Virus genome (UHGV): UHGV-0205585
Strand: one strand, 5' to 3'
Source of the DNA: a virus
Length of the DNA: 39,500 bases
Shown here: piece by piece, positions 5,758 through 24,900 of the stretch
Layout: the number at the start of each line of letters is the position of its first letter
Numbering within the stretch: position 1 is the first letter of the stretch
Program-made: the position numbers and the translations under genes
The notes under the pieces: model-generated
What the model was told of the DNA's origin: nothing
The model's input: the letters and a program-made list of their open reading frames with translations, nothing else
Database searches by the model: none

Positions 5758-6321
5758 TTAATTGTTTACATTAACTGGTAATACCAACTTTACGTTCTTT
5801 TTTCCGTGCCTGATAATAATTGGATCTTGTGGTCCTGCTACATCCAGCCTTATTACAGGCTTTTGAACTCGTTCGTGTGCAGGGATCTGTTGTATTGCAT
5901 CCAGTAAATATTTGGCATTTACATACACGTTCGCTATTGAGTTCCTTTCTAATTCCTTTTTAAGAAAAGCATCTACATCTGGAAATTCTTTCGCTGGTTG
6001 CAAATACCCAGTAATACTATCGCCTGCAACTATATATGCCCTGTCACCGCTTAACTCAATTTCTACTTTATCAATTCCTGTAAGCTTAGGAATATTTGGT
6101 TTTATATAGCAGGTAAAAGAACCATCCGCCTGTACAAGCTCTGCGTATTCATCCGCGATTCTATAGTTATCTAATGCAGTGGCTTCTATTTCTCTCGCCT
6201 CAATATCAATCTTTAATCGTATATACTCCATCATTATGTTGGTGTGTATACTGGGGCGAATAAACCGCTTTGTATTATCAATTATTCGTTTAAATTCCCT
6301 TGCATTTATAATGGCTTTCAT
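5758..6321 (-). CDS. DNA polymerase III beta-clamp-like protein (about two domains)
   Basis: ATALDNYRIA, EFPDVDAFL, VNAKYLLDAI and KLVLPV resemble the DnaN motifs ATDGHRLA, FPDY, FNxxYLLDAL and VMPM. ATGA overlap gives a start at 6321. Confidence 0.65.
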   Translation of the reverse strand: MKAIINAREFKRIIDNTKRFIRPSIHTNIMMEYIRLKIDIEAREIEATALDNYRIADEYAELVQADGSFTCYIKPNIPKLTGIDKVEIELSGDRAYIVAGDSITGYLQPAKEFPDVDAFLKKELERNSIANVYVNAKYLLDAIQQIPAHERVQKPVIRLDVAGPQDPIIIRHGKKNVKLVLPVNVNN

Positions 6322-6635
6322 TCTTCTTCCTCCCATGCTCTTGTCTCATAATGATTGCAACTATCATATCCTTTTGATATATATCCCTCATATTCACCGC
6401 AGAATACGCCATCTGAATGATAGCAATTACGGCAGCAATCTTCTTTGCAGTGCTCCGGTTCACAGTTTTCGCAATCCGCTTTCGACTCATCATTTACGTC
6501 CTTAATTTCTGATACGTTTTCGCCTGTATCCTCCAGATCTATGTTTATATTGCTGTTCTTACTGGTAGCGCATAGTGCCATAACCAGCGCCCCGGCAAAT
6601 CCCCCTGCTATAAAGCTTATAATGCATCCGATCAT
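6318..6635 (-). CDS. DUF3789-like membrane-anchored protein with Cys-rich C-terminus
   Basis: MIGCIISFIAGGFAGALVMALC hydrophobic N-terminus; AGGAGG RBS; start at 6635. Confidence 0.6.
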   Translation of the reverse strand: MIGCIISFIAGGFAGALVMALCATSKNSNINIDLEDTGENVSEIKDVNDESKADCENCEPEHCKEDCCRNCYHSDGVFCGEYEGYISKGYDSCNHYETRAWEEEE

Positions 6636-6883
6636 ATGTTTTGCCTCCTTAATCTTGCACCTGTGTATGCCTTTTTCCGTATCCCGCGTGTAACACGGTC
6701 CCATTCATCCCACAAACTCTGCGGTATATTGCATGTCTTGTTCTGCTCTGGTGATCTCGGTTTGAGTATATAACTTACGCCCCCGTAAGACATCCCTACT
6801 ATTGCCGCTATCTGCCTTTGGGTCATGCCCTGTTTTCGCAGTCTTTTTACTTCTGCTTTCTTTTCTTCGCTTAATGCTTTCAT
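6632..6883 (-). CDS. HTH DNA-binding protein
   Basis: GMTQRQIAAIVGMSYGGVSYIL helix-turn-helix. Confidence 0.75.
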   Translation of the reverse strand: MKALSEEKKAEVKRLRKQGMTQRQIAAIVGMSYGGVSYILKPRSPEQNKTCNIPQSLWDEWDRVTRGIRKKAYTGARLRRQNI

Positions 6884-7086
6884 GCCATTTTCCCCCTTTT
6901 TTTACTTACTTTTACGTTTTCGGTAATAATCACGTTTGTATTTATTCCCTGTAACGCATTTAACGCCTGATTCACAGCATTTTATGTGTCCATTCCAGTA
7001 TTTCTATCCTGAGTTTTTATATTTCCTTAAAACGCCATTTAAACGTTAAATACAGCATATGCGTTTTTTCAATCATTTTCCCTTGA

Positions 7087-7920
7087 TTATTGTTCGCTAA
7101 TCCTCTTTAGCATTTCTGCGCTGTTTTTCTGTGCTATGTATTCCCTTACAGACTCTTCTGGAAACTGGATCTGGAATGTGCTCTCTCTTATGCGCGTTGT
7201 AACTCGCTTATCGTATGGCAATGTATTAACCGATTCATTGCTTGTAATTATCGTTACCCTTTTGTTTGCATATCGGTCATCAATGATGTAGTTAAATCTT
7301 TCCCTTACCCAGTCCGTGGGATTCTCTGCCCCAAAGTCATCGATAACTAGCACCTGTGACGTTGTAATCGCGTCAATAACGCGGCTTTCTGACTCCTGGC
7401 TATCTTTTCCCCAAGTGCGCTTTATCTCGTTTAAAATAGCCGTAGAAGAAGCGAACTTTACTTGTTTATTTTGGTTGTTCATTAATTCATTTGCGATGCT
7501 TGCTGCCATTCTGGTTTTTCCAGAGCCTTTTGTGCTGGAATATATATAAAGCCCCATCCCGCGTTCCTGGTACTCCGAAAAGTTGTTTAGGTATTCCTTA
7601 ATGGTTTTACAGGCTGTTATAATTACCGGCTTGCTTTCTGGCTGCTTGTACACATCTGCACGAAACGTCTTAAGGTCCATTCCCGAAAATGCTTCCGGGA
7701 TCTCTGCAAATCTTACGCGCCTCTTTGCGAGACTTTTCTTCCGGCACTGGCATTCTACTGCAACCTCCAACCCCTGCTCATTCTTTTGCAGTATCCATTC
7801 ATCACCGCCGCATATCGGGCATACATCAGAATCCTTCCCATTCGCCGTCCCCGTAACCGGCGTTGATCGCCTGTTGGATAAGTCCGTCTGTATCCGGTTT
7901 AACATTGCCTCTAGTGTCAC
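7087..7920 (-). CDS. DnaC/IstB-like ATPase (helicase loader)
   Basis: CPIC...CQC zinc motif, GSGKT Walker A, LVIDDFG Walker B, TIITSN; probable GTG start at 7920. Confidence 0.9.
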   Translation of the reverse strand: MTLEAMLNRIQTDLSNRRSTPVTGTANGKDSDVCPICGGDEWILQKNEQGLEVAVECQCRKKSLAKRRVRFAEIPEAFSGMDLKTFRADVYKQPESKPVIITACKTIKEYLNNFSEYQERGMGLYIYSSTKGSGKTRMAASIANELMNNQNKQVKFASSTAILNEIKRTWGKDSQESESRVIDAITTSQVLVIDDFGAENPTDWVRERFNYIIDDRYANKRVTIITSNESVNTLPYDKRVTTRIRESTFQIQFPEESVREYIAQKNSAEMLKRISEQ

Positions 7921-10641: not shown

Positions 10642-10793
10642 TCTTTTTCCTCCTTTATCCAATTGCCAGAAAAGAACCAGTCCATAAATTCTTTTTTGTC
10701 CTTGCTGTCCAACAAATCTAAATTTTCTTTTGCGTAAACAAATGCATCTTCCTCAGATACCACTTCATTTGTCGTCATTTCTTTATAAAACAT
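10638..10793 (-). CDS. Hypothetical 51-aa protein (not in ORF track)
   Basis: AGGAGG RBS; MFYKEMTTNEVVSEEDAF...DWFFSGNWIKEEKE*; overlaps the erf start. Confidence 0.7.
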   Translation of the reverse strand: MFYKEMTTNEVVSEEDAFVYAKENLDLLDSKDKKEFMDWFFSGNWIKEEKE

Positions 10794-11874: not shown

Positions 11875-12366
11875 TTATTCTTTTGGAAGCACGTCAAACT
11901 CAATATTAATTGTAATCTGATGCATTTTCATACCTGGTGCAAAAAGTTTGTGATTAAATATTTTAGCAAACCCCCACATATCATTTCCTGTAAGTTCTAC
12001 TATTGTAGGCTCTGTGATTTTTTCCTCATTAATAATTAGAATTTCATTTTTAAAATCTAAAACTAAATTTTCTAATGTTTCGAATTTTCTCCATTTATTG
12101 TCTGTTACGGATTTCATATAATTCTTAAACGTCTCTTCGTCGAATGACAATTTAGTAGGCATTTTTGTGTGCTTAATATCCAGTACATCAGGTTTAACGC
12201 CTTTCTCTAATAACTCGATATCATCATTAAATATTTTTTGATTTTCAAATCCTTCTGCAGCCGCCCAGCCCTCTGTAGCTGGAATATTTACTACTGTCGG
12301 GGTGGTTATATCTACCCCGTCAATTTTTAATATATTTTTTTCAAAATCCACTATAATACTTTTCAA
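11875..12366 (-). CDS. Hypothetical protein with internal domain duplication
   Basis: AGGAGG RBS, TTG start at 12366; two similar halves. Confidence 0.7.
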   Translation of the reverse strand: MKSIIVDFEKNILKIDGVDITTPTVVNIPATEGWAAAEGFENQKIFNDDIELLEKGVKPDVLDIKHTKMPTKLSFDEETFKNYMKSVTDNKWRKFETLENLVLDFKNEILIINEEKITEPTIVELTGNDMWGFAKIFNHKLFAPGMKMHQITINIEFDVLPKE

Positions 12367-12376
12367 TTTTCCTCCT

Positions 12377-12769
12377 TTAAAAAACGAATGGTGATTTACC
12401 CGTTGATCTGGTCTTTTTATTGATTTCATCAATAATAGTATCTACTGGTAAATATTTTTTCTCTTTTGCGGTTATCAATGCTGCAAGGGCATTTACCATT
12501 TCAGGAACATCGCCGTTTTCATGATATTCTTCGCGTAATTCTGTCTGAACCCAACGGCAGATATCATCAATGGTTTGATCCAGAAGCGACGCCGCCTGTT
12601 GCTCTTTGGGCTTTTCAGCTTCCGCTTCTTTGCAAACAACGTCTATAACTATTTCAGCAATAACCGATCCGTCAGACTGTATTTCTTTTGCTGAAATACA
12701 GCTTAAACACTCAAGTTTAATGCCGTCTAAAAGATATACACCTTTGTTATCAATCGTAAGTTTGTTCAT
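12377..12769 (-). CDS. Hypothetical protein
   Basis: 130 aa; AAGGAG RBS. Confidence 0.7.
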   Translation of the reverse strand: MNKLTIDNKGVYLLDGIKLECLSCISAKEIQSDGSVIAEIVIDVVCKEAEAEKPKEQQAASLLDQTIDDICRWVQTELREEYHENGDVPEMVNALAALITAKEKKYLPVDTIIDEINKKTRSTGKSPFVF

Positions 12770-12800
12770 GTACTCTCCTTTCTACTACTTGTCTAATGGG

Positions 12801-13001
12801 TTACTGGGTAGCTTGATCCCGGTAATACTCCGGGTAAGTTTCAATAAATCTCTCCAGATCAGACCCTCTTACTTTCTTACTGCCCAATTGTAAATGTGGT
12901 AGTTTATTTGAATTAATCAATTCGTAAACTTCATTGACATTTACTAATAAAATTTTTGATACCTGTTTGACGGTATACAGTGGTTTGTACGGCTCTACCA
13001 C
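12801..13001 (-). CDS. xis: Excisionase-like HTH_17 protein
   Basis: LYTVKQVSKILLVNVNEVYELIN..KLP....GSKKV. Confidence 0.75.
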   Translation of the reverse strand: MVEPYKPLYTVKQVSKILLVNVNEVYELINSNKLPHLQLGSKKVRGSDLERFIETYPEYYRDQATQ

Positions 13002-13016
13002 GGAAATTCCTCCTTT

Positions 13017-13283
13017 CTACCCTACCTTTTTGCTAATTGGTTTATTAAATTCGTGTTTCTGAACTTTTTTTGTAAAAAAATGAGAACAATATTCATTACT
13101 TGGAATGCCAAGCATCTTTGATATTTTTACAATTTCTTTTGGTGTAAATTCAATTTTGTTATTTAGTCTTTGGCTTAAAGAAGTGCGGCTCATATTTAAT
13201 TCAGCTGCGAATCTTTGCTGTGTTCTATATACTTCTTTTATTTTCCCTAACAACTTGCTGTAGTCAAATTCGAACTCTTCCAT
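13017..13283 (-). CDS. Cro-like repressor (DUF739/XRE)
   Basis: FDYSKLLGKIKEVY.TQ..FA..L.MS..SLSQRLNNK..F; divergent from cI. Confidence 0.85.
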   Translation of the reverse strand: MEEFEFDYSKLLGKIKEVYRTQQRFAAELNMSRTSLSQRLNNKIEFTPKEIVKISKMLGIPSNEYCSHFFTKKVQKHEFNKPISKKVG

Positions 13284-13305
13284 TACGGTTCCTCCTTATT
13301 TTTTT

Positions 13306-13437
13306 GTTCGTCTTCCTGAACTTGTTATTATAATAGCACTAGTTTTGTCCAAAGTCAATATGTTTTTTCGTCTTTCTGAACTAACTTTAAATTTTTCTGC
13401 GAAAAATGTTGTGTTTTCTGAACAAATATGTTAGAAT
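13306..13437. promoter_or_regulatory. Lysis-lysogeny switch: divergent promoters and GTTC-N8-GAAC-type operators
   Basis: Minus promoter TTGACT-17-TATTAT (13358-13330); plus promoter TTGTGT-17-TAGAAT (13409-13437); operators at 13306, 13366 and 13408, with related copies at 13049 and 13782. Confidence 0.75.
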
Positions 13438-13462
13438 ACCGCTATAAAGAGAGGTTGATAAA

Positions 13463-13837
13463 ATGAATACAATAGCTGATAGAATTAAAGAAGCGCTACA
13501 GGTTAAAAACATGAAGCAAATAGAATTAGTAGAAAAAACTGGCATAGGAAAATCTTCAATAAGCACATATATTTCTGGCGAGTATGAGCCCAAACAAAAA
13601 AACTTATACAAAATAGCTAATGCTTTGGATGTAGATGTTTCGTGGTTAATGGGAAACGATGTCCCTATGAATCCCGAGGCAACCCCTGGTGGAATGAGTA
13701 ATTATGAACTTGCAAATTTAATAAATGATCTTAGAAATGATAACGGGATGCAGCAATTGTTAAAAGGATACAAGGAATTAGGTTCAGAAAACAGAAAGAT
13801 TTATCTAGATTTGCTGTCAGCAATGAAAAAAGAGTGA
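13463..13837 (+). CDS. CI-like XRE repressor without a peptidase domain
   Basis: MKQIELVEKTGIGKSSISTYISGEYEPK HTH plus a short helical C-terminus. Confidence 0.88.
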   Translation: MNTIADRIKEALQVKNMKQIELVEKTGIGKSSISTYISGEYEPKQKNLYKIANALDVDVSWLMGNDVPMNPEATPGGMSNYELANLINDLRNDNGMQQLLKGYKELGSENRKIYLDLLSAMKKE

Positions 13838-13963
13838 TTATTTATCACCCTTATCCTTTGTTTTAGAAATTGTATCGACTATCGACAAGATAAATACCAT
13901 GTCACTGCCATTCATAAAAGGCAGATATTCCATTATAGTGTTCAAAAAAATTTCTTCGCTCAT
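13838..13963 (-). CDS. 41-aa putative SOS-controlled antirepressor (not in ORF track)
   Basis: AAGGAGG RBS; MSEEIFLNTIMEYLPFMNGSDMVFILSIVDTISKTKDKGDK*; abuts the cI stop; lies downstream of a LexA-box promoter. Confidence 0.6.
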   Translation of the reverse strand: MSEEIFLNTIMEYLPFMNGSDMVFILSIVDTISKTKDKGDK

Positions 13964-14048
13964 GCGTATTTCCTCCTTGTTCGCTAAGTTATAATTTTAA
14001 ATTGTCAATCAATTTTAACACAATTGCGCGATAATCACAACATTTTTA

Positions 14049-14107
14049 CGAACAAACGTTTGTCTTTTGTATGTTTACATTATAACTCTTTTAACTTGTT
14101 TAGTCAA
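14049..14107 (-). promoter_or_regulatory. Promoter TTGACT-17-TATAAT with a Firmicute LexA (Cheo) box
   Basis: -35 at 14102-14107; -10 at 14079-14084; CGAACAAACGTTTG at 14049-14062. Confidence 0.7.
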
Positions 14108-14327
14108 ATCAATCTTTTTAGGTAAAAAGATTGATTAAACGCACTTTTTGTACAAAAAGTCAAATTTATTGGTAAATTATGGAAAGTTACTAATTTAACA
14201 CTTTTGGTTTTACCAAGTAGGCAAGAATACGTACCAACTAATCAAAGTATTAGTAAAATGGTAGATATTAACTTTGTGAAAAATCACAGTTTTATAAATA
14301 ATATTTTCTAAAGAAAGGAGACAAGAC

Positions 14328-15533
14328 ATGGCACAAGTAACAGCAAGAAAAAGGGGAAAAACATGGGAATATGGATTCGAAGGATCAAAAATAGGCGGCA
14401 AGAGAAACCGGATAACTAAAGGAGGTTTTCGGACTAAAGGGGACGCTCTTGAGGCAGGGACAAAAGCCTTGGCTGAATACAATCAATCCGGAATGCACTT
14501 TGAACCTTTAAATATTAGTGTTTCGGATTATCTTGATTACTGGCTTGAAGAACATATAAAAAAGAATATGGATTACAACACTTACCTCGATTATGAAAGC
14601 AAGGTGCGTATCCATATTAAGCCTAATTTGGGGCAATACAGGCTATGCGCTCTCCGCCCAGATGCAATACAGAAGTGGATAAATTCCATCAAACAAAAAG
14701 GTTATGCAAAAAACATGGTATCAAATATACTTTCTTGCCTATCTGGGGCATTGAACTACGCAATACAGCCATGTCAGTATATCGAATCGAATCCATGCTT
14801 TTTTGTTAAGGTTCCGCGAATACAGGAAAACAAAATAAAAAAAGAACATACGGATTATATCTGTGGTAAGGAAGATTTTTCGAAAATAATAGATCGATTC
14901 GGACCTGATTCTAATTTTTATATTCCGCTTATGATCGGGTATCACTTAGGAACCAGAATAGGCGAGACTTATGGCATAGATCTGTTTAAAGATGTAGACT
15001 TCGAAAAAGGAGAATTAAAAATTCAACAGCAGGTTCAGAAGGAGGGAAAAAACTGGTATTATCGTTCCCCGAAATATGATTCCTATAGAACTATAAAGTT
15101 AGGTGCTATTATATCTGATATATTAAAAAGGGAAATGATAGAGCGAAAAAAGAACATATTAAAATATGGAGAATATTTTGTAAAAACTTATGTTATGCCA
15201 GATTGCTCTATTGTTCAGTATCCAGCCAGTATTTCTGTTCCATATAGAGAAATTATGCCAGTAAGCGCAAAGGAAAATGGAGCATTGCTAACTCCGCATT
15301 CATTCCATTACTGCGCTAGAGTTATACATTATGAGCTGGGGATGCCATTATTCCATAGCCACGCATTACGTCACACGCACGGAACTATTCTCGCTGAAAA
15401 CGGGGTTAATCCCAAAACCGTAATGGAAAGACTCGGGCACAAAAATATTCAGACCACTTTGCAAACTTATATTTTTAACACGGATAAGATGCAGCAAGAT
15501 GCCGTAAACATTTTCGAGTCTGCTATATCATAA
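14328..15533 (+). CDS. int: Tyrosine integrase
   Basis: Arm-binding N-terminus, SAM-like domain, catalytic R (GTRIGE), HALRHTH, RLGH..I.TT...Y. Confidence 0.96.
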   Translation: MAQVTARKRGKTWEYGFEGSKIGGKRNRITKGGFRTKGDALEAGTKALAEYNQSGMHFEPLNISVSDYLDYWLEEHIKKNMDYNTYLDYESKVRIHIKPNLGQYRLCALRPDAIQKWINSIKQKGYAKNMVSNILSCLSGALNYAIQPCQYIESNPCFFVKVPRIQENKIKKEHTDYICGKEDFSKIIDRFGPDSNFYIPLMIGYHLGTRIGETYGIDLFKDVDFEKGELKIQQQVQKEGKNWYYRSPKYDSYRTIKLGAIISDILKREMIERKKNILKYGEYFVKTYVMPDCSIVQYPASISVPYREIMPVSAKENGALLTPHSFHYCARVIHYELGMPLFHSHALRHTHGTILAENGVNPKTVMERLGHKNIQTTLQTYIFNTDKMQQDAVNIFESAIS

Positions 15534-15534
15534 T

Positions 15535-15820
15535 TTGTCAACCAACAAAATTTTGGTTGACAAATCGTAGACAAAAGTGCAAAACATAGATGTAGCATGA
15601 CTAAAAACCGCTATAATTACGGGTTAATAGCGCAACAGTTTCAACGTGCCCACTTTGTGCAAATATTGTGTCATGTAATATTTTATCATATTGTATTATA
15701 TTTTCTCTCTTTTTTAAATTCATTGTTTAAGCGATACTAATTGTTAAATTATATTATATCATAATGTTGGGTGTTTTGCAGTATTTTATGTGCGGTTGAC
15801 AAATGGTAGACATTGTCGAC
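15535..15820. mobile_element. attP with a replacement 3' end of an RlmD/RumA-type RNA methyltransferase gene
   Basis: Minus strand 15651-15601 reads GHVETVALLTRNYSGF*. Arm-type repeats GGTTGACAAATSGTAGACA lie at 15555 and 15794, with an inverted copy at 15535. Confidence 0.8.
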
Positions 15821-15889
15821 TAAGATTCCATTTATTCCCATTGTGTTTCATTCTTCAAAAAAGTATATTAAATATAAATAATTACTTTT

Positions 15890-16162
15890 ATGGAGAAAAT
15901 TATGGAAAGAAAAATTATAGATATAGAAGTGGAATTTCGCACCCTCCTGGGGGACGCTAAAGAACCTGTACTGGTCAGAACACTGCCGGATACGGCAGAC
16001 AGCAATTATTATAAGATATTAAACGCTAAGAGCATGCATAAAAGATACCACCGTGGAGAATGCATAGGAGTTATTGCATGTACCGTTGCAATGCATGGGA
16101 AGCCAGTAAACGCGCTTCTGCTGCACTACCCAGAGAAGTCTATATGGAAGCTTGTTATTTAG
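15890..16162 (+). CDS. Hypothetical accessory protein
   Basis: GGAG RBS before the second Met; followed by a terminator. Confidence 0.65.
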   Translation: MEKIMERKIIDIEVEFRTLLGDAKEPVLVRTLPDTADSNYYKILNAKSMHKRYHRGECIGVIACTVAMHGKPVNALLLHYPEKSIWKLVI

Positions 16163-16190
16163 CCCTGGTTAAATCCGGGGCTTTCTTTTT
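16161..16190 (+). terminator. Intrinsic terminator
   Basis: AGCCCTGG...CCGGGGCT followed by TTCTTTTT. Confidence 0.7.
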
Positions 16191-16255
16191 ACCATTTATT
16201 ACCATTATATTACTAATAACTGGTATGATAAACTACATACATGGAGGGGATTGTT

Positions 16256-16705
16256 ATGGATAGAGAAAATATAGATATTTTAAATAGTCTTATTGCCGAA
16301 ATTGACAAACAGCGTAGAGATATTATATACAAGAAGATTCTGCGAAAACGATTGATAAAGACAGTTTCCATAATCCTTGTATTTGCATTACTTTTATTTA
16401 TGCCCATAGAAGCCGCCTATCTGCAGGAACCAGAATTTGTCCTGCTGGATTCCGAGCACAACATAGATCAGAACGGGAATTGCGTGGTACATGCTATTGT
16501 AAGGCATGTGAACTTCGATAGGCAGATCGTAAGCGCTGCTACCGGGATGACTGCCAGGCACCAGGTTAAGTTTAACGATCTGCGTAAGTACCGGACGATT
16601 ATATATATGTATAGGAATATCTTTGATTATGTGGGAGGGAAGCCGTTTAAGACTGTACACATGTACTCGGATTCTAAATTTGTACATATGCCAAAAGATA
16701 ATTGA
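16256..16705 (+). CDS. Membrane-anchored hypothetical protein
   Basis: GGAGGGG RBS; one TM segment (VSIILVFALLLFMP) followed by a soluble domain. Confidence 0.7.
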   Translation: MDRENIDILNSLIAEIDKQRRDIIYKKILRKRLIKTVSIILVFALLLFMPIEAAYLQEPEFVLLDSEHNIDQNGNCVVHAIVRHVNFDRQIVSAATGMTARHQVKFNDLRKYRTIIYMYRNIFDYVGGKPFKTVHMYSDSKFVHMPKDN

Positions 16706-16841
16706 CAAATCTGGTGGATAATATTATACTATTAGTGTATTAACAACTATTGTTAATACATATGACTCATAGCCCGGAATCCATATCCGGGCTATACCTG
16801 TTTCTTTGCATAATAATAGCCCCAGAATATACAGGGGCTAT
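16702..16841 (+). ncRNA. Putative orphan small RNA
   Basis: TTGACA-17-TATACT promoter followed by hairpins at 16736-16760, 16769-16795 and 16816-16841; no ORF. Confidence 0.45.
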
Positions 16842-16851
16842 AAGATACTTA

Positions 16852-17226
16852 TTAATTCTTGGTAATAGCAGCAAGCAAATTTTGCTGGTCTTCCGAGCTT
16901 GCTGTGTCATCGTCTAACATGGAAGCTCCACTCATTACATAAGCTACAAGTCGCCTATTGTATCTGTCCTTCTCTGCTTCCGCGTCAATATTGGTGTTAA
17001 TTTTTTCCCATTTGTTCAGAAGCAAATTTCTGTATGCGGATAGCTTTTGCGGTGCATGTGTAATGTCTGCTGTTGTATGCGGTGCATTTTTTAAGTGCCC
17101 GTATGTATTAATATTGTTATATAACAACCCCATAGCATAGCAGTATGTAGCACGATCATACGGGATATTTTCTACTTCTTCCTCTGCTCCATTTTTAAAA
17201 ATATTTCTTAGTTCTTCAATTTTCAT
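16852..17226 (-). CDS. 124-aa helical protein resembling Cas11/the C-terminal domain of type I-B Cas8b; candidate anti-CRISPR
   Basis: GGAGG RBS; Y.YAMG.L...H...L.NKW.K.N..I...R...LVA.V...Q.NLLA pattern; directly downstream of the mini-CRISPR array. Confidence 0.5.
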   Translation of the reverse strand: MKIEELRNIFKNGAEEEVENIPYDRATYCYAMGLLYNNINTYGHLKNAPHTTADITHAPQKLSAYRNLLLNKWEKINTNIDAEAEKDRYNRRLVAYVMSGASMLDDDTASSEDQQNLLAAITKN

Positions 17227-17247
17227 CTCTCGTCCTCCATTTTATAC

Positions 17248-17282
17248 GAAAAGCCCCAGAAAACTATAGTCCAGGGCTTTTC
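17248..17282. terminator. Bidirectional terminator-like hairpin closing the mini-array
   Basis: GAAAAGCCC...GGGCTTTTC with flanking A and T tracts. Confidence 0.65.
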
Positions 17283-17310
17283 TTTTTTTATACTATTAAT
17301 CAATATAAAT

Positions 17311-17453
17311 GTTTCAATACGCCATGCGTTACGTTTAATTTTTTGAAACAACAAACTTAAATTAGCCTATATTTCAAAACAACTTATGTTACTATTAATT
17401 AATTAAGATATGGATTTACCAGATTTAAATACAAAATGATGTTAATATTTATG
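17311..17453 (-). CRISPR. Degenerate mini-CRISPR array: 3 type I-B-like repeats, spacers of 22 and 30 nt
   Basis: Minus-strand repeats CATAAATATTAACATCATTTTGTATTTAAAT, AATTAATAGTAACATAAGTTGTTTTGAAAT and AATTAAACGTAACGCATGGCGTATTGAAAC. Confidence 0.7.
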
Positions 17454-17458
17454 CCGTA

Positions 17459-17487
17459 ATTATACAGCATATTACTTTCTGTGTCAA
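17459..17487 (-). promoter_or_regulatory. Consensus promoter of the mini-array
   Basis: TTGACA-17-TATAAT; predicted start near 17452, at the beginning of the first repeat. Confidence 0.8.
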
Positions 17488-17509
17488 TTGCAACGCTTTT
17501 TATCTAAAT

Positions 17510-17761
17510 TTATTTAATTTTAATGCCCGTATCCCAGCATCCAAACACTAGATTATGCCCGTAGGTAGTACTTCTATTTCCGGTTCCATAAGTAACCATT
17601 AAACAACCATTTGTCGCAAGTGTTATTCCTGTAATTCCTCTTCTGGTTATTCCGTCCAGCCAAGAGTCTTCTACCTTTCGCCATCCTACTATTTCCCCTG
17701 TTTCTAGGTCGAATTTTTCGTCTAAAATATTCCATGTTCCATCTGTGTTTTTTGCTTTCAT
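17510..17761 (-). CDS. 83-aa hypothetical protein; candidate Acr
   Basis: GAGG RBS; promoter TTTACA-17-TATACT overlapped by an operator; divergent HTH gene. Confidence 0.7.
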   Translation of the reverse strand: MKAKNTDGTWNILDEKFDLETGEIVGWRKVEDSWLDGITRRGITGITLATNGCLMVTYGTGNRSTTYGHNLVFGCWDTGIKIK

Positions 17762-17812
17762 ATTATCCTCTTTTCTTCCGGTTCTCCCGGTTTCTGTTCT
17801 TTAATTGTCTTT

Positions 17813-17930
17813 AGTATACACCTGTTTTGAGTGAATGTAAATATGGAATATTCACTAAATTTGAGTGTATGTTTTTAGCAATTATATACACCTATTATAA
17901 GTTGATATGTTTTGCGTGATGTGGTATTCT
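17813..17930. promoter_or_regulatory. Divergent promoters with three ATWCAC-N9-GTGWAT-type operators
   Basis: Operators at 17816-17836, 17850-17870 and 17886-17906 (degenerate). Minus promoter 17841-17813; plus promoter TTGATA-17-TATTCT at 17902-17930. Confidence 0.7.
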
Positions 17931-17952
17931 ATTATAAAAAGGAGTTTTTAAG

Positions 17953-18183
17953 ATGATAAAATATAAAATTGAAGTCATTCCCGAATTAAAGAAGCGCGGT
18001 TATAGCGCATACCGGATTAGAAAAGAAAAAATTATAGGGGAGTCACAAATGCAAAAAATCCGTGATGGAGAACTTGCATCGAAAGAAGTTTTAAACAAAA
18101 TATGTGAGATGTTAAATTGCCAGCCCGGTGATCTGCTGGAATATATACCGGATGAACAAAAAAAGAAGACCCCTGAGGAATAA
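17953..18183 (+). CDS. Cro/C1-type HTH (HTH_26) regulator, Aca-like
   Basis: LKKRGYSAYRIRKEKIIGESQMQKIRDG...LNKICEMLNCQPGDLLEY. Confidence 0.85.
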   Translation: MIKYKIEVIPELKKRGYSAYRIRKEKIIGESQMQKIRDGELASKEVLNKICEMLNCQPGDLLEYIPDEQKKKTPEE

Positions 18184-18259
18184 TCCACAGGGGTTTTAGT
18201 TCGCAAATACATGCCGACTAATATTATATTGCTTGCCGGTCAAACCGTTTATGTCATTT

Positions 18260-18529
18260 TCAGAACAGTCTCTTCATAACACTTTCGGCTATTCCGTTTG
18301 TATCAAATACTAGCGGAACATCCTTCAATCTGTTGTCATTTTGCTTATACATTTTAAGGAAGTCCAATATGGTAACTCCTGTAACTTCGTCTGTATTCAT
18401 ATCCCTCATAACCACTATATTATCAGGGTCTTCGTCTCCGTAGGAATTAGAATTATCCCCGCATGAATAATAAAGAACATCATTGGCTTTATCGTAGTTA
18501 ATATTATTTTCGATATATTTCACTGCCAA
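18260..18529 (-). CDS. DUF2283 family protein
   Basis: YDKANDVLY...IVVMRD..T.EVTGVTILDF. Confidence 0.75.
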   Translation of the reverse strand: MAVKYIENNINYDKANDVLYYSCGDNSNSYGDEDPDNIVVMRDMNTDEVTGVTILDFLKMYKQNDNRLKDVPLVFDTNGIAESVMKRLF

Positions 18530-18833
18530 TTCCCCCTTTTATTTGCTTCTGTGGCCAAGCAGATACTACAGAACATATATTTCCTTCATTTTTTTGAGTT
18601 ACCACTTTAGTATATGCGTCATATGACGATATGCTTGATTGCTTAAAGTAAACATTTCTTGCTGGATGTTGATTGCTTTCATATATTACATCTGGATCTT
18701 CTATGGTATCTTTCACAGCATTAAGGTTGTTAGACATAATCGCATGTCCTGATGTTATATGCCCTGTCCAGGTGGTATCGGAGCATATAACTTTATCGCC
18801 TAATATGTCTACAGTTTCTATAACGTTCCCCAT
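18504..18833 (-). CDS. RelE/DUF4258-like putative ribonuclease toxin
   Basis: W..HI..GH...VKDTIEDPDVIY...R.VYFK...KVV...VVSAW; overlaps the DUF2283 gene. Confidence 0.55.
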   Translation of the reverse strand: MGNVIETVDILGDKVICSDTTWTGHITSGHAIMSNNLNAVKDTIEDPDVIYESNQHPARNVYFKQSSISSYDAYTKVVTQKNEGNICSVVSAWPQKQIKGGIGSEIYRK

Positions 18834-18844
18834 ATTACTGCCTG

Positions 18845-19144
18845 CTATACATTCTTAAAGTTTGGGATAGATCCGTACTCTTTCTCGTATGAGTCTAAAT
18901 TCCCTTCCAGCAATGTTTTCATAGCTTTAGCCATCTGCGGGCTCATTCTAATTATTATTTCATTATCTACATCTTTATGCTGACTACTATCCTTGCCCTC
19001 GTATATAAATTCTCTTTTAAATTGCAAACAGAAATCAAAAAAAGTGTTGCTGATTGTTAATCCATTTGCATATACTTCATTTCTTACCTCTTTGTTATCA
19101 TCGGTATTTGCTGCTGTTGCTGAAACTTCATTTTTGTTCTCCAT
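18845..19144 (-). CDS. DUF3467 family protein
   Basis: VYANG...DF.LQF...IRMSPQMAK.M..LL..NL..YEKEYGSI; own promoter TTGAAT-17-TATAAT (19202-19174). Confidence 0.7.
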   Translation of the reverse strand: MENKNEVSATAANTDDNKEVRNEVYANGLTISNTFFDFCLQFKREFIYEGKDSSQHKDVDNEIIIRMSPQMAKAMKTLLEGNLDSYEKEYGSIPNFKNV

Positions 19145-19256
19145 ACACTTATCCTCCACGCATTTTTTTCTTAATTATAACCTATATTCTTTTTCTATTC
19201 AACTAAAAGAACCTGCGCAAGGCTGTTTAAAATATGGCGAGAACAAACATCCGCCG

Positions 19257-20780
19257 TTAAGCCCTTATAATATATTTTTCCGCAATAAACCCGGAATACT
19301 TCTTATCTATTAGAATCTGGTACCACCCGGATTCTTTATTAATAACATCTACCAAATTCCCTTTATTAAGCTTTGGATATCCCACAATGTTGCCGTAGTT
19401 TTCCCCTGGTCCTTTGCGGACATTTACCCCGTCTCCGGTGCACTTTCCAACCCAGATAGAATTGTCCGTTCCTTTTACAATGGCATCAAATCCGGCTCCC
19501 TTAATTTGCCTTACCAGCATGTCAGCATTCTTCTTATTAGAGAATACACCACACTGCACCTTATACTGTCCTGCCTCTTCTTTTACGATAGCGTCAAAGC
19601 CCTTATTCTTTAGGACTGCCGCCAAGCTATTTGCCAGCTTCTTATCCTTGTAGCTGCCAGCCTGTACTTTATAAGTACCGGTTTGATCCGGTTCCGGCTG
19701 TGGCGCCGGTATCGGTTTATGTTGCTCTTCTTTCGTGCCGATTATAGCCTCCAGGATATTTAAAATCTTGCCGCCGTATCCACTGCCGGCAGCCCATCCT
19801 TTGCCTTTTGGATTCTCCTGGATACCCAGCCATTCTACATACTCGGCACAGCCTCTTTCTACAAAATTAAAGCGTGGATCTACGCACTCTTTCTTTAAAG
19901 GCTCTGTACAGGCGTAGGCTTTAAGATGCTGGATCTGCGCCCGGATACCGGTCTTTGTGTTGGGGAAAGAATTACCTTTCATGCCGTTTGCTGTAACCCC
20001 CATACCGCAAAAGTTGTTTTGATCCAGTGTGACGGCGCTTTCTTTAAAAGTAAAGTTCCCGGTTTCCAGGCAGCTTTGTGCAAATGCTATATCTCCCCGG
20101 ATTCCTTCAGCCTTGCCCTCTTGGATGTACTGCGAGACCGTATCCAATACCGATTGTGCGACATTGGAATTTTTAGACTTAATATACGTCTGCATCTGCT
20201 CTGCTGTAGCGGCTGTTTTACCAGTAATCTTTGTGCCGGTTACCGATGCGCTCCCGGAAAGCTTCTTTTTAAATGCCTGCCATGCAGATTCATTCAGGAC
20301 ATAAGGATTTGGGCAGATCTTCCCGTTTACATCATAGTGGCGGATAACCCGGTCAACTGGAATCCCATATTTTTGCATCAGCATCTTTGTTAACTCTATG
20401 GTTGCTTTTACTGTAGCTTCTTCGTAATACCAATCCTGGTCATTGGCATTCATGGAGGTAGTGCTACGCTTTCGGACACACATCTCTATATTTAAAGTAT
20501 TGTAATTATTTGCCTTGCCGTAGAATGCTCCGCCGCCGCTTCCCTGTCTGCCACCGCCTACGCTCCATGCTCCGTTGCTGTCTTCCACGCTCTGCCAGAC
20601 CTCTCCCGAAAATCCTACATAGTAATGTGCACTGGCTCCAACATCTCCGCTGGCATAGTAAGTACAGTTTGCTTCAGCTCCGCCCAGGGCGCCGACATAG
20701 TGTATAACAATGTACTGTATGCCTTGCCCGTTCCTGCCGTTGTAATGGTTATATGGTGTGATTTTCTTATTTATGTTCAT
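19257..20780 (-). CDS. Endolysin: Amidase_2 + glucosaminidase-like + 2x SPOR + SH3
   Basis: IVIHY..ASAHY..RHYDV..KICP; AFAQSCLETG..NNFCGMG; YKVQ.G.F repeats; GVNVRKGPG. Confidence 0.9.
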   Translation of the reverse strand: MNINKKITPYNHYNGRNGQGIQYIVIHYVGALGGAEANCTYYASGDVGASAHYYVGFSGEVWQSVEDSNGAWSVGGGRQGSGGGAFYGKANNYNTLNIEMCVRKRSTTSMNANDQDWYYEEATVKATIELTKMLMQKYGIPVDRVIRHYDVNGKICPNPYVLNESAWQAFKKKLSGSASVTGTKITGKTAATAEQMQTYIKSKNSNVAQSVLDTVSQYIQEGKAEGIRGDIAFAQSCLETGNFTFKESAVTLDQNNFCGMGVTANGMKGNSFPNTKTGIRAQIQHLKAYACTEPLKKECVDPRFNFVERGCAEYVEWLGIQENPKGKGWAAGSGYGGKILNILEAIIGTKEEQHKPIPAPQPEPDQTGTYKVQAGSYKDKKLANSLAAVLKNKGFDAIVKEEAGQYKVQCGVFSNKKNADMLVRQIKGAGFDAIVKGTDNSIWVGKCTGDGVNVRKGPGENYGNIVGYPKLNKGNLVDVINKESGWYQILIDKKYSGFIAEKYIIRA

Positions 20781-20799
20781 ATTTTTTTACCTGCCCTTT

Positions 20800-21288
20800 C
20801 TACTCTGCAAATACCCAATCTTCTGCCAACATATCCGCTTGACTTGCAAGCCACCCCATCTGTACGCCAGATGTTCCTACAAAAGCAATTGCCATGTTGC
20901 CTATGCTGTCATGATTGCAGTTAACGATGCACCCTTCCGCGTTTTGATAGCTTATATTCTTTGCCAGCTCGATATATTGTTTTTTGCCGTTCCAGCCTTT
21001 ACGGGCTACTTTAAGACCTCTTTTTAGGTATTTAATGGCATCGGAAAAACTAAAAGTTGCTGTACCTCCAAGCGCCGGAGTATTGCTGTTATCCGCGATG
21101 ATAAATTCATCAGAAGCCATATTTTCAAACGTGTACTGCGGTCGCTGTGTATCCAATAGATTTATAATCTCTCCGTCCTTTGTGTGCATCATTATAGTTT
21201 CGTCTTCCCATGCCCAATACCCTTCCCAGCTAGGAAGTTTTACCTTTGCTCCTTTTCGCATTGCCTCAAATGCTTCTCTAAAATTCAT
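20800..21288 (-). CDS. Tandem DUF2829 (Tad2-like) protein
   Basis: MNFREAFEAMRKGAKV...SDEF and FSFSDAIKYLKRGLKVARKGWNGK...WLASQADMLAEDW. Confidence 0.8.
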   Translation of the reverse strand: MNFREAFEAMRKGAKVKLPSWEGYWAWEDETIMMHTKDGEIINLLDTQRPQYTFENMASDEFIIADNSNTPALGGTATFSFSDAIKYLKRGLKVARKGWNGKKQYIELAKNISYQNAEGCIVNCNHDSIGNMAIAFVGTSGVQMGWLASQADMLAEDWVFAE

Positions 21289-21327
21289 ATATTTTACCTT
21301 CCTTTCCAAAAAAGAAAAGAGAGCGAT

Positions 21328-21534
21328 TTACTCGCCCTCTGTGATTTCCGGTAATCCAGCTACCGAAGTTAATACCGACAATACCCCAGCCAATGCCGCT
21401 GTAGATCCAACCATTACCCAGTTAACATCTCCCATAGCTGCCGTTGTACCAATGCTGGCAATCGTTGCCTGCGCTACCGTTTTAATCGCTCTAACTGCCG
21501 CTGCTTTTAACCAATTCTTTGTAAATTTACCCAT
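21328..21534 (-). CDS. Holin (r1t type)
   Basis: WLKAAAVRAIKTVAQ...LAGVLSVLTSVAGLPE. Confidence 0.9.
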   Translation of the reverse strand: MGKFTKNWLKAAAVRAIKTVAQATIASIGTTAAMGDVNWVMVGSTAALAGVLSVLTSVAGLPEITEGE

Positions 21535-21550
21535 TTTAAATCCTCTCTTT

Positions 21551-21865
21551 CTATAAGTATTGGGCTACCATTAAGATAAACCCGGTTGCCAGTGCCCCCG
21601 CTACTACGGAAACGATTGTTGTAAACGCTGTCTTCTTTGCACTATTCCAACGCTCTGCCGGTTCGTTTTCCAACTTCTGCAGCCGGTCTCCCTGCTTTTT
21701 CTGTTCTTCCATCATCGTTTTCATATTTAATGCCAGTTCTTTGACCGACATTGCCAGTTCCTGTATACACTTTTGCTGCGCTTCCAAATCTGCCACACGG
21801 GCTTTTAAAGATCTGCTATCCTTTCCAAGCTCCGCTATTTTTACTGCCACTTCTTCATCATTCAT
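21551..21865 (-). CDS. Coiled-coil plus C-terminal TM lysis accessory (XhlA-like)
   Basis: Heptad region followed by a TM helix; directly upstream of the holin. Confidence 0.7.
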   Translation of the reverse strand: MNDEEVAVKIAELGKDSRSLKARVADLEAQQKCIQELAMSVKELALNMKTMMEEQKKQGDRLQKLENEPAERWNSAKKTAFTTIVSVVAGALATGFILMVAQYL

Positions 21866-21916
21866 ATGTCCCTCTCTCCTGTCTATAAATTTGCAAAATA
21901 AAAAGACCTTTCGGCC

Positions 21917-24900
21917 TTACTTCCATCTCCCTATTGCCATCCATCTAAAGTAAGTTGCTGTGGATGTATTGGCGGCAGCCGCCCCTTGCAACACTACCCG
22001 GCATGAACCGTATTCTATATAGTCTACCCACGGTACCCCGCTGTAGGAACTATTTTCATATTGGATATTAACAGTTACGGGACAGTTGCCCCCAAATGTA
22101 TATGGGAATGTAATGGTTTTAGCGGTATTTTTATATGCGTTCGTGACTATATTTTCCCTTACCATCCCCCATTGAATCAGGGTACCATCAGATAGTTTTG
22201 TATAGCCATTTCCGGCATTTAATGATATTTGTCCAAGTTTCGCCTTTTCTGTGGAAGTCACAAAGCAATGGTCAGCATCGGTTATTACGTCAGTCGCATT
22301 GTGTGTATGTGATATAGGCGCATATTTATTTTTTAATGCTACTCCACCCTCGGTAATTCCTCCGATATAAAGATTACCGGTTCCGAAACGTAAATCAGAT
22401 CTTGCAAAATCGATATACATTTCGTCTCCATTAATAAAAGCATCGTATGAATTTGCCCCACCGCTGTTGGATTCTTTTTTTGTAAGAGTAATTCCTTTTT
22501 GATATAACGGGCTTGTTGCATTTCCTACATCCAGACCAATCCATAATTGCTTGGACTTACCGCTTTCTGGAAGAGACATTGTTGCCGATAAAATGTCAAT
22601 TGGCACATCGGGCCAATTTGCCGGGTAAATAGAATACTTATCTTTTGCCATTAATTTTGTAGCATCTACCTCTCCGATAAACTTTCCGTTCTTTGCTTCC
22701 ACACTTCCGTCTGACAGAATTTTAAAATTACTATTTGCGGTTACAACACCGTCTAAAGTTATGTTCTTAGCCTGGATCTTTGCGCTTCCACCAGAAATAA
22801 TATTAACCAGGTTTGTTGCCGACAAATCTATCCTTGCTGTTGCCAAAGATATAAGCCGGTCTGTAATCGTAAAATCTGTTGCAGATGTACCGCTCTTTAC
22901 GATCCAGTTAAACTTATCCGCTGTTTGCGTGGCTTTGGTCTCTACAGAAGTTATCCTGTTCTCCGCCGCTGTTAAGTCCGTATCCTTGGCATAGTAGCTT
23001 CCTACCGTTGCTACAATCCCATCTTTGGTAATTTTCTGGCTGGCTTCCTGCTTCCAGGTCTCCAGGGCTGTTATTTTACCGGTTGCGGTGGTTAACTCTG
23101 CCTTAGTGGAATATGTTTCGCTAACGGACGAGGTTATGGCTGTCTTGGATGCTTCTATGGCGCTGTTCATTTGTTTTGTGGTGCTGTAGTTTCCCAGTGT
23201 GTTGGATAATTCCGTCTTGGTTGTATATGTGCTGGATACGGATGTTTTAAATCCATCCAGATTGCTGCTTAAGCTGGACACCGTACTGCTAAGAGTACTT
23301 AGTGCACTGCCGTCTGCTTTCTTCTCTACGGTCTTTTCCAGGTCGGATACGTCTGTCGCAAATCCGCTAAGTGTAAGCTCGAAGTTCGCCTGCTTGCTGT
23401 TTATTGTCTCTATACTGCCGTTTACCGTCTCTAAGCCCGTTACAAGGTCTTTGGTGCTATCTGTAACCGTGGTGCTTACGTAATCAGTTACCTTTCCGGT
23501 AATTCCGGTAAGCTTTGTTTCCAGGCTTGCTGTACGGTTGCTTATTGCTGTTACTGTGCTTGTTTCTGCTTTGTTGCCGATTTGGGTTGTGTGGGTGCTT
23601 ACTGTGGTTTGTAGGTTAGATACGTTCTGGGTTATGGCATCTGTGGTCTGCTTTATTTCGGATTTGGCGGTTTTTATGGATTCTGTGGTGTTTGTTATTA
23701 CTTCTGCTATGGACGCGTCTGTGTCTTCGGAATTTGGTGTCCAATCAGTGGCTTTTGTTCCTTCTTCCAGCTTTAAATACGCAATATTAAATATCGTACT
23801 TCCGCTACCCATGAATACGAAAGGTCGCCAATACTTTCCTTTAGGTTGAAATGTTACATATAATAAAGTCCATTGATTTGCAATTGCGGATTGTTGGAAT
23901 TTTATTGTTTTGATTCCTGCAGTATTATTATTTTTGTCGACTGCGCAGTGATAATGCAAAGGAGTACTTTCACTCCCGGTTACATTAGCATTTGTTAAGA
24001 TCATTGCCGAATAAGTATAAATTTTATTTGTGTCTAATTCTATCCATTCTGTGTTATGACCATTTATTCCGTTACCAACAGTAGTACGTAAAGTGTTGTA
24101 ACCTAAATACTTAACGGTTGTGTCCAAGCTAAGAGTTCCGCCATTATTGCCCCAATATTTCGTATCGGGTAACTTCTCCCAATGTCCTGACTGTCTAAAA
24201 AGATTCCTTCCGCCAATAGTAATACTCTCCACAGCCTTATTAATATCCGTCTGTTCCACCTTGGACGTAATCTGCCCCTGTAATACGGTTATATCTGAAG
24301 TAGCCTTAGATAAATTCGAAGTATTCTTGGAAATCTTACCGTCTATCTCTTCTTTCGCTGTTGTCCACGCCTGTGTGTCTAACTTAAGCTTAATAGAATC
24401 CTGTGCCGCCTTTATAGAAGCCGCCTGCGTCCGCAACGACTCCCCGTGTTCTGTAATGGTATTGGTCTGCTCTCCAAGGTACACATTAAGACTTCTATCC
24501 CCCACCTGCACCACAGTGGACTGTATCTTCTCCGTAGCCCCGTTAACCGACCGCACAACACTATTAATATCCAACTTATTCCCGGATATATTAGCATCGT
24601 CCGCCACCTTGTTGTTGTCCACGGCACCGTTGGTTATCCCGGCATTATGTACGCCGTCCCCATCCAACATAACGGTTTTGCCATCCTTACCCCGGATTAA
24701 TAACCCGTAGGTGGTTGCGCTTCCGTTGGTGTATTTACCCAGGATTACCCGGTTGATTGGACTGGCGGCGTTGGTGGTGTCGTTTACCATAAGTTGGTTT
24801 CCAGTTATTGTTATGGCGCTGTCTTTGCTTGCTATAGTTACCTGGGATGTGTCTACCGTACCGGATTTAATCTTATTTGCGGATAGGTCGGATATCTCTG

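Follow-up and report, generated by a model that had tools for sequence, protein, structure and literature searches.

Cracr arrays, as presented in the text of Liu et al. (10.1101/2024.10.29.618823), include arrays with 24- and 21-nt spacers, and the 30 arrays of that text target type I-C, I-E or I-F systems, I-B figuring only among the targets of candidates generally. Type I-B mini-arrays are described in Clostridium and Fusobacterium phages in the account of Shmakov et al. (10.1101/2023.03.03.530964), where the phage spacer has its match in a mini-array that the host carries upstream of cas6. Racrs, in the description by Camara-Wilpert et al. (PMC10651486), are solitary repeats without a targeting spacer. 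The host elements CreR and CreA, as outlined in 10.1101/2023.03.10.532045, are located within cas loci, whose immediate surroundings they target. Viral anti-phage mini-arrays, according to PMC11656645, carry repeats identical to those of the host and spacers matching related viruses.

Here we describe an array of three pseudo-repeats (R1 to R3) and a repeat fragment in the 39,500-nt genome of phage UHGV-0205585 (hereafter, the window). As with the Cracr arrays of Liu et al., it is phage-borne and outside cas loci, has degenerate repeats and several short spacers, possesses its own promoter and terminator and sits beside small genes without a known family; unlike Cracrs as described there, it is of type I-B, its target is putative and one of its handles is predicted to fold on itself. 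It shares with the mini-arrays of Shmakov et al., as reported, the I-B type, the phage setting, a conserved seed, a shortened spacer and nearby candidate acr genes, and differs in its three repeats plus fragment and its Lachnospiraceae host. The Racrs of PMC10651486 resemble it in mimicking repeats and in standing behind a prophage promoter, without cas genes, and competition for Cas6 and Cas7 is plausible here also; however, they are solitary, whereas this array has three repeats, a fragment and conserved spacers. CreR/CreA, by the outline cited above, have in common with it a degenerate mini-CRISPR, a short spacer and I-B among their subtypes, but no Cas family was found among the 31 window proteins scanned, and no local target. 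Viral anti-phage mini-arrays as described are likewise virus-borne, with one or two spacers and no cas genes. In contrast to these, R1 to R3 differ from one another at 9-16 of 30 positions, so that at most one of them can equal the host repeat, and no spacer match to related viruses was seen. Having two distinct short spacers flanked by degenerate repeats, a promoter of its own and a terminator-like end, the element would work most like the Cracr arrays and the I-B mini-arrays of Shmakov et al., its target and processing being putative. It is likely a variant of the known RNA anti-CRISPR arrays, the unusual part being a second RNA predicted to hide its own handle.

RESULTS

A promoter-driven array in the accessory region of a temperate phage

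The window is a temperate phage genome with terminase, portal, tail, lysin, holin, repressor and integrase genes and a Tad2-like gene; the array is thus phage-borne and outside any CRISPR-cas locus. It occupies an accessory stretch with the integrase (14328-15533) on one side and the lysin (19257-20780) on the other. The Tad2-like (Thoeris anti-defence) gene (20800-21309, minus strand; E 4.9e-24) lies between holin and lysin. Clusters of the neighbouring proteins include members named uncultured Robinsoniella sp. and Robinsoniella peoriensis, and from these names the host is very likely Robinsoniella (Lachnospiraceae). At least half of the sampled words of 16700-18300 were present in 17 of 24 listed runs, mostly mouse gut metagenomes; the stretch was absent from the raw reads of two related isolates.

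All of the parts named in a first-pass annotation of this DNA are present, and all are on the minus strand. The perfect promoter that it had placed upstream of the first repeat is a sigma-70-type TTGACA-17-TATAAT promoter (17459..17487; TTGACA 17487-17482, TATAAT 17464-17459) with 12 of 12 consensus bases, ranking first of the 49 promoter sites in 12000-24000. Only two perfect TTGACA-TATAAT sites occur in the window; the other, at 10793 on the plus strand, precedes a short RNA-like stretch antisense to early genes, with a weak ctRNA match (E 0.53). Transcription from the array promoter is expected to start about 6 nt before R1, so there is no leader. R1 (17423..17453) is 31 nt long with one extra loop base, or 17452-17423 when taken as 30 nt. 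It is followed by spacer 1 (17401..17422, 22 nt), a candidate guide, by R2 (17371..17400, 30 nt), by spacer 2 (17341..17370, 30 nt), for which pairing with its own handle (8 nt) and seed is predicted, and by R3 (17311..17340), which has a GC-strengthened 4-bp stem. After a 9-nt remnant spacer comes the 5' end of a fourth repeat (17291..17301), and the array closes with a GC-rich hairpin (17248..17282) whose predicted fold is terminator-like in both directions. The longer T run of the hairpin is on the plus strand, and on the minus strand it is probably leaky as a terminator. It was missed by a terminator scan, having a 9-nt loop against a scan maximum of 8. Similar GC-stem hairpins punctuate the accessory region at 16161, 16769, 16817, 17250 and 18170.

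The repeats belong to a clostridial type I-B family

Pairwise, R1 to R3 are identical at 14, 15 and 21 of 30 positions. An equally similar triple arose in 49 of 300 dinucleotide shuffles, so their self-similarity alone is within chance; what places the array above chance is its similarity to I-B repeats, weak Rfam CRISPR-DR matches and conservation in another prophage. A whole-window Rfam search returned no CRISPR family. The same search with 321 nt gave 13 weak matches, among them two CRISPR families, each on a claimed repeat: R1 with CRISPR-DR3 (19.4 bits, E 4.8, far below the gathering score of 41) and the end of R3 with part of CRISPR-DR38 (16.8 bits, E 2.8, likewise far below the gathering score).

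The best plasmid match of R2 was a three-repeat array on a C. baratii plasmid, and the repeat of that array led to canonical I-B reference arrays. Annotated type I-B genes lay beside the canonical arrays in five of the six loci fetched. One of these arrays, in locus L050, has a 30-nt repeat in 96 copies next to cas6-cas8b-cas7-cas5b-cas3. R2 is identical to the L050 repeat at 24 of 30 positions, more than any other site in the window (19 at most), a score inflated because the reference was reached through a BLAST search started from R2. R1, R3 and the fragment played no part in choosing this reference: R1 has 23 identical positions with one gap, R3 has 19 (17-21 of 30 against four canonical repeats) and the fragment matches the 5' end at 10 of 11. 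In a repeat profile scan of the window R2 came first (18.3) and R1 second (7.3, against a background of 7.2), and R3 was not in the top 10 sites.

An alignment of 19 repeats has the 4-bp stem paired in 73 of 76 cells. Six of the sequences, including R3, carry double compensatory changes at two stem pairs relative to canonical repeats; since several aligned rows were found with stem-containing patterns, these count as about one event rather than six. The inner stem pair is missing from both R1 and R2. The array has the traits of the clostridial type I-B repeat family (a repeat of about 30 nt, AAC-stem-loop-GT, an 8-nt handle), an assignment to be read with Rfam scores below gathering thresholds and with references reached from R2. 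Canonical spacers measure 33-38 nt in L050 (95 of 95) and 34-37 nt in L051, and the 22- and 30-nt spacers here are therefore short for I-B, as the first-pass annotation had noted.

That annotation had made a match of the repeats to known CRISPR repeats a condition of its reading; such a match is seen with clostridial I-B repeats and falters in the profile scan, with R1 barely over background and R3 outside the top 10. Its attribution to "type I-B/III" stands for I-B, there being one repeat family found beside I-B genes, and found no support for type III. The proposal that the repeats cover several Cas6 specificities likewise gained no support: all three align to one family, and their mix of variants recurs within other arrays, so neither several Cas6 specificities nor type III is needed.

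The array is conserved in another prophage and moves with its neighbours

One metagenome locus found to encode a relative of ORF124, the gene directly downstream of the array, is L002, at the end of another prophage that appears to interrupt a tad pilus ATPase gene. Different genes lie directly upstream there, yet promoter, array, hairpin and ORF124 are all kept, with ORF124 again following the array. The array is identical at 146 of 162 nt, against 53-59% of nearby neutral positions (9 of 17 in the promoter spacer, 74 of 125 at third codon positions of ORF124). The promoter hexamers agree at 12 of 12 positions; R1 agrees at 29 of 30, spacer 1 at 19 of 22 and spacer 2 at 28 of 30. By this comparison the repeats and spacers evolve under purifying selection, and by its conservation the array is real and functional. 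Upstream of the L002 array, about seven small ORFs without a known family (L002:2786-4745, plus strand), separated by short repeated hairpin motifs, form a candidate anti-defence island; they include a homologue of ORF83, about 1.4 kb from the array.

In a contig from run X19, all 33 substitutions between 16720 and 18197 fall outside 17291-17452, where about 3.6 would be expected in proportion to length; the contig also has two short insertions within repeats and a compensatory pair (17254/17276) in the hairpin. Run X15 has the block 16729-18225 with other flanks, from which we take the HTH gene, ORF83, array and ORF124 to move as a cassette. Two RNA libraries of one study yielded contigs that span ORF124 and the hairpin (16760-17304 and 16772-17300); such contigs show neither strand nor ends, and a DNA origin is possible. 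That they stop at 17304 and 17300, with none over 17305-17621, fits processing at R3 but was not accepted as evidence, the ends being unseen and the study a single one.

The two spacers differ in variation and predicted fold

In type I Cascade every sixth guide base is unpaired. Spacer 1 differs from its L002 counterpart at positions 1, 6 and 16. Against the homologous array in locus L039, 7 of the first 8 bases are common and 4 of the other 14. The bases TGGT at positions 2-5 also occur in L039 and in locus L047 (chance about 0.003 each) and in none of 160 canonical spacers (0 of 96 and 0 of 64). They are present in two of five other distinct elements and absent from the other three, and L039 is related by descent. 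A seed-first pattern of conservation like this, in the few sequences at hand, would be expected of a guide whose target changes slowly.

Spacer 2 varies at seed positions 5, 7 and 8 and not at 6. Its unit (handle plus spacer 2) is predicted to form a single long hairpin in the window (-10.2 kcal/mol, z -4.6, 0 of 200 shuffles), a fold that starts at the expected Cas6 cut. The same unit folds in L002 (z -3.75, 1 of 200 shuffles) and L039 (z -3.0, 2 of 200), and the L002 changes keep or extend the pairing with the handle. The handle plus spacer 1, in contrast, has no fold above shuffles (38 of 200). On this prediction the hidden handle of unit 2 could be unwound on loading, or could block Cas5 and Cas8, an outcome like that of RacrIF1; an aberrant Cas6-Cas7 complex formed via the paired handle is conceivable.

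Searches for targets gave no match above background. In the window and L002 no seed match exceeded shuffled guides (best 10 and 9 nt; shuffled guides up to 12-13). Five upstream regions from four non-host I-B loci gave best spacer matches of 8-9 nt, none convincing near cas6. Upstream of the L050 cas6, 13 nt match an L047 spacer; the match was discarded, being AT-rich and by rough estimate within chance. No full spacer match was present in 50,697 phage records. Neither these nor the viral contigs contain an ORF124 relative, so close rival phages are missing from the collections; the first-pass suggestion that the guides silence rival phages thus gained nothing from collections without a close relative of this phage.

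Related elements occur in other phages and plasmids

Exact or narrow repeat patterns gave no matches in viral contigs, and no phage or plasmid record covered 80% of the array by BLAST. Two repeat-only patterns without spacer bases, searched in viral contigs, found seven and four loci; the layout of promoter, repeat, short spacer, repeat and hairpin is present in four of the seven and all of the four, the other three lying in or at the start of genes. These loci reduce to five distinct phage or plasmid elements (L039, L040/L041, L006/L037/L044, L046/L048 and L047), in which about 17-28 nt separate the repeats. L039 is a direct homologue, with R1 nearly identical and both spacers alike at their 5' ends; it lies at a prophage end beside a tmRNA, with no ORF124 relative among the ORFs of its 9.4-kb locus. 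A pattern of handle plus spacer-1 seed hit 28 loci, none with a second repeat or an array context.

Some of these elements have features of their own. A Paenibacillus larvae plasmid and phage SV21 have a common two-repeat element (L006:1440-1570, L037:2990-3115, L044) whose 17-18-nt spacers are kept while the repeats differ. In L040 (5936-6045) and L041, two nearly identical 25-nt spacers stand in tandem behind two repeat variants. Two genes after the L040 mini-array, a viral contig encodes a stand-alone 119-aa protein (7002-7361, plus strand) similar to the Cas11b portion at the C-terminus of type I-B Cas8b (95% probability in hhalign), the order being mini-array, a gene at 6259-6939, this gene and an HTH_26 gene at 7381-7626. 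It is possibly a phage Cas11 mimic in an anti-CRISPR cluster, and no paper on such a mimic was found by title. On a C. baratii plasmid, a TnpB-family gene is immediately preceded by a three-repeat array (L005:3000-3161) with 35-36-nt spacers, and a Clostridioides plasmid has a single repeat-like unit with a short spacer and a terminator (L007:3000-3085). We found no mention of our element in the literature; searches for its motifs and for "Robinsoniella" in the supplements of PMC10651486 and PMC10120712 were blank, and preprint tables may list it.

The neighbouring genes encode small proteins without a known family

ORF124 (16852..17226, minus strand) encodes a helical protein with 14 homologues (72-95%), and ORF83 (17510..17761, minus strand), upstream in the same cassette, a small protein with five homologues, in whose cluster one member is named Robinsoniella peoriensis. 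Neither matched a Pfam, PHROG, NCBIfam or PADLOC family, a relative in viral contigs or, at significance, a solved structure. In the Atlas, ORF124 had no usable match and ORF83 low-confidence leads only. The ORF124 model is poor and uninformative (pLDDT 54, best fold Z 4.1). With hhalign probabilities of 0.7% and 0.3%, ORF124 was rejected as a mimic of Cas11b, and a single 17-residue match in a scan of genome contigs, from a cyanobacterium, was judged spurious. A divergent Cro/C1-type HTH gene (17953..18183, plus strand; Pfam HTH_26, E 2.8e-13) completes the cassette. By position, ORF124 and ORF83 are candidate anti-CRISPR proteins and the HTH gene a candidate Aca. A 10-nt inverted repeat at 17827/17850 was dismissed as an Aca operator, having been equalled in 4 of 15 shuffles.

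Convergent with ORF124, an 11/12 promoter in 16702-16800 (plus strand) drives a short non-coding stretch that contains a GC hairpin and a palindrome. Runs X13, X14, X15 and X19 have several differently flanked copies of it, and it is possibly a small RNA or a cassette boundary. On the far side, a block of DUF3467, a PBECR2-like nuclease and DUF2283 (18260-19159, minus strand), covered by RNA-library contigs, looks like a toxin-antitoxin or defence module.

DISCUSSION

The phage carries, behind its own promoter, an array of I-B-family repeats with short spacers, and this layout recurs in other mobile elements. The repeat family, the short spacers, the conservation and the context support the central idea of the first-pass annotation, a phage RNA aimed at host CRISPR-Cas; its extensions to several Cas6 specificities, type III and rival phages found no support. 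Some anti-CRISPR role, as guide or as decoy, is quite probable. Within it we lean towards a crRNA-like anti-CRISPR array of the Cracr kind, silencing host cas or toxin promoters. Short crRNA-like RNAs would be taken up by the I-B Cascade of the host, which they would direct to a host cas promoter or to that of a CRISPR-guarding toxin, and they would crowd out true crRNAs. For this, we infer that the array promoter is strong and active in the lysogen and that host Cas6 cuts 8 nt from the 3' end of each repeat. Unit 1 (handle plus 22 nt) would then assemble a shortened Cascade, which would bind a partial match next to a PAM and leave it uncut; unit 2 would do likewise at a second target after unfolding, or act as a decoy, and read-through past the hairpin would also express ORF124, a possible protein partner. 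The place between integrase and lysin and the nearby Tad2-like gene count for the guide reading. Against it count the lack of target matches in the sequences searched, the limited spread of TGGT among the five elements, the seed variation of spacer 2 and its predicted base-paired handle, which fit a guide poorly, the missing inner stem pair of R1 and R2, and the weak profile ranks of R1 and R3.

The predicted fold of unit 2 bears most directly on a second explanation, that the units are target-free, Racr-like decoys, bound and cut by Cas6 and Cas7 so that these subunits are soaked up, with spacers kept for fold or length. The fold recurs in all three homologous arrays, the L002 changes keep or extend it, the R3 stem is strengthened, and RacrIF1 makes a Cas6f-Cas7f complex without Cas5f and Cas8f in the account of PMC10651486. 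Unit 1, however, is conserved, with a seed-first pattern and no comparable fold, and Racrs are solitary repeats rather than three and a fragment; we consider decoys throughout unlikely, if worth keeping in view. A more elaborate arrangement would divide the labour: unit 1 as a promoter-silencing guide, its seed common to clostridial phages, and unit 2 as a handle-locked decoy in which spacer 2 pairs its own 5' handle so that Cas5 and Cas8 could not load, Cas6 would be held by the GC-strengthened R3 stem, and Cas6 and Cas7 would be sequestered; with the third cut, the mRNA of ORF124, as a protein inhibitor, would be released too. This combination is rather improbable as a whole.

The remaining explanations leave aside host cas genes. 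Anatomy cannot tell promoter targets apart, and the guides might direct host Cascade against a promoter outside the cas genes, for instance that of a different defence operon or of a gene on a co-resident element; a Haloferax crRNA-like RNA repressing non-cas genes is mentioned in the literature. Yet the published phage cases, as far as the sources cited describe them, map to cas loci, and no seed match in the window or L002 went beyond shuffled guides, which makes such silencing very unlikely. Superinfection exclusion, with host Cascade-Cas3 guided to rival phages, is a role that PMC11656645 describes for viral mini-arrays, and a gene of an Enterocloster (Lachnospiraceae) phage contains 24 nt that match the R1 end plus spacer 1 with one mismatch. 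The match has an E value of 0.4, includes only 14 spacer bases and has a repeat-like rather than a PAM-like flank; moreover, the spacers are shorter than canonical and show no turnover between prophages, and the repeats differ among themselves where such arrays, by that description, carry host-identical ones, so the chance of this role is slight. The slimmest chance belongs to a decaying captured array or a structured leader of the ORF124 mRNA with no CRISPR role. Chance-level self-similarity of the repeats, RNA-library contigs over ORF124 and the hairpin, and folding of the array region (z -3.1) would suit it, but conservation far above neutral sites, a homologous array in L039 apart from any ORF124 relative, and the recurring layout speak against it.

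Type I-B systems are common in gut Clostridia and are used there for genome editing, and most tests of RNA anti-CRISPRs have concerned types I-E, I-F and V-A. The conserved multi-spacer I-B array of these Lachnospiraceae prophages and the five related Bacillota phage and plasmid elements are concrete candidates for I-B. ORF124 and ORF83 are, by association, candidates for protein inhibitors. One transcript would combine guide and decoy strategies if unit 2 proves to be a self-locking decoy.
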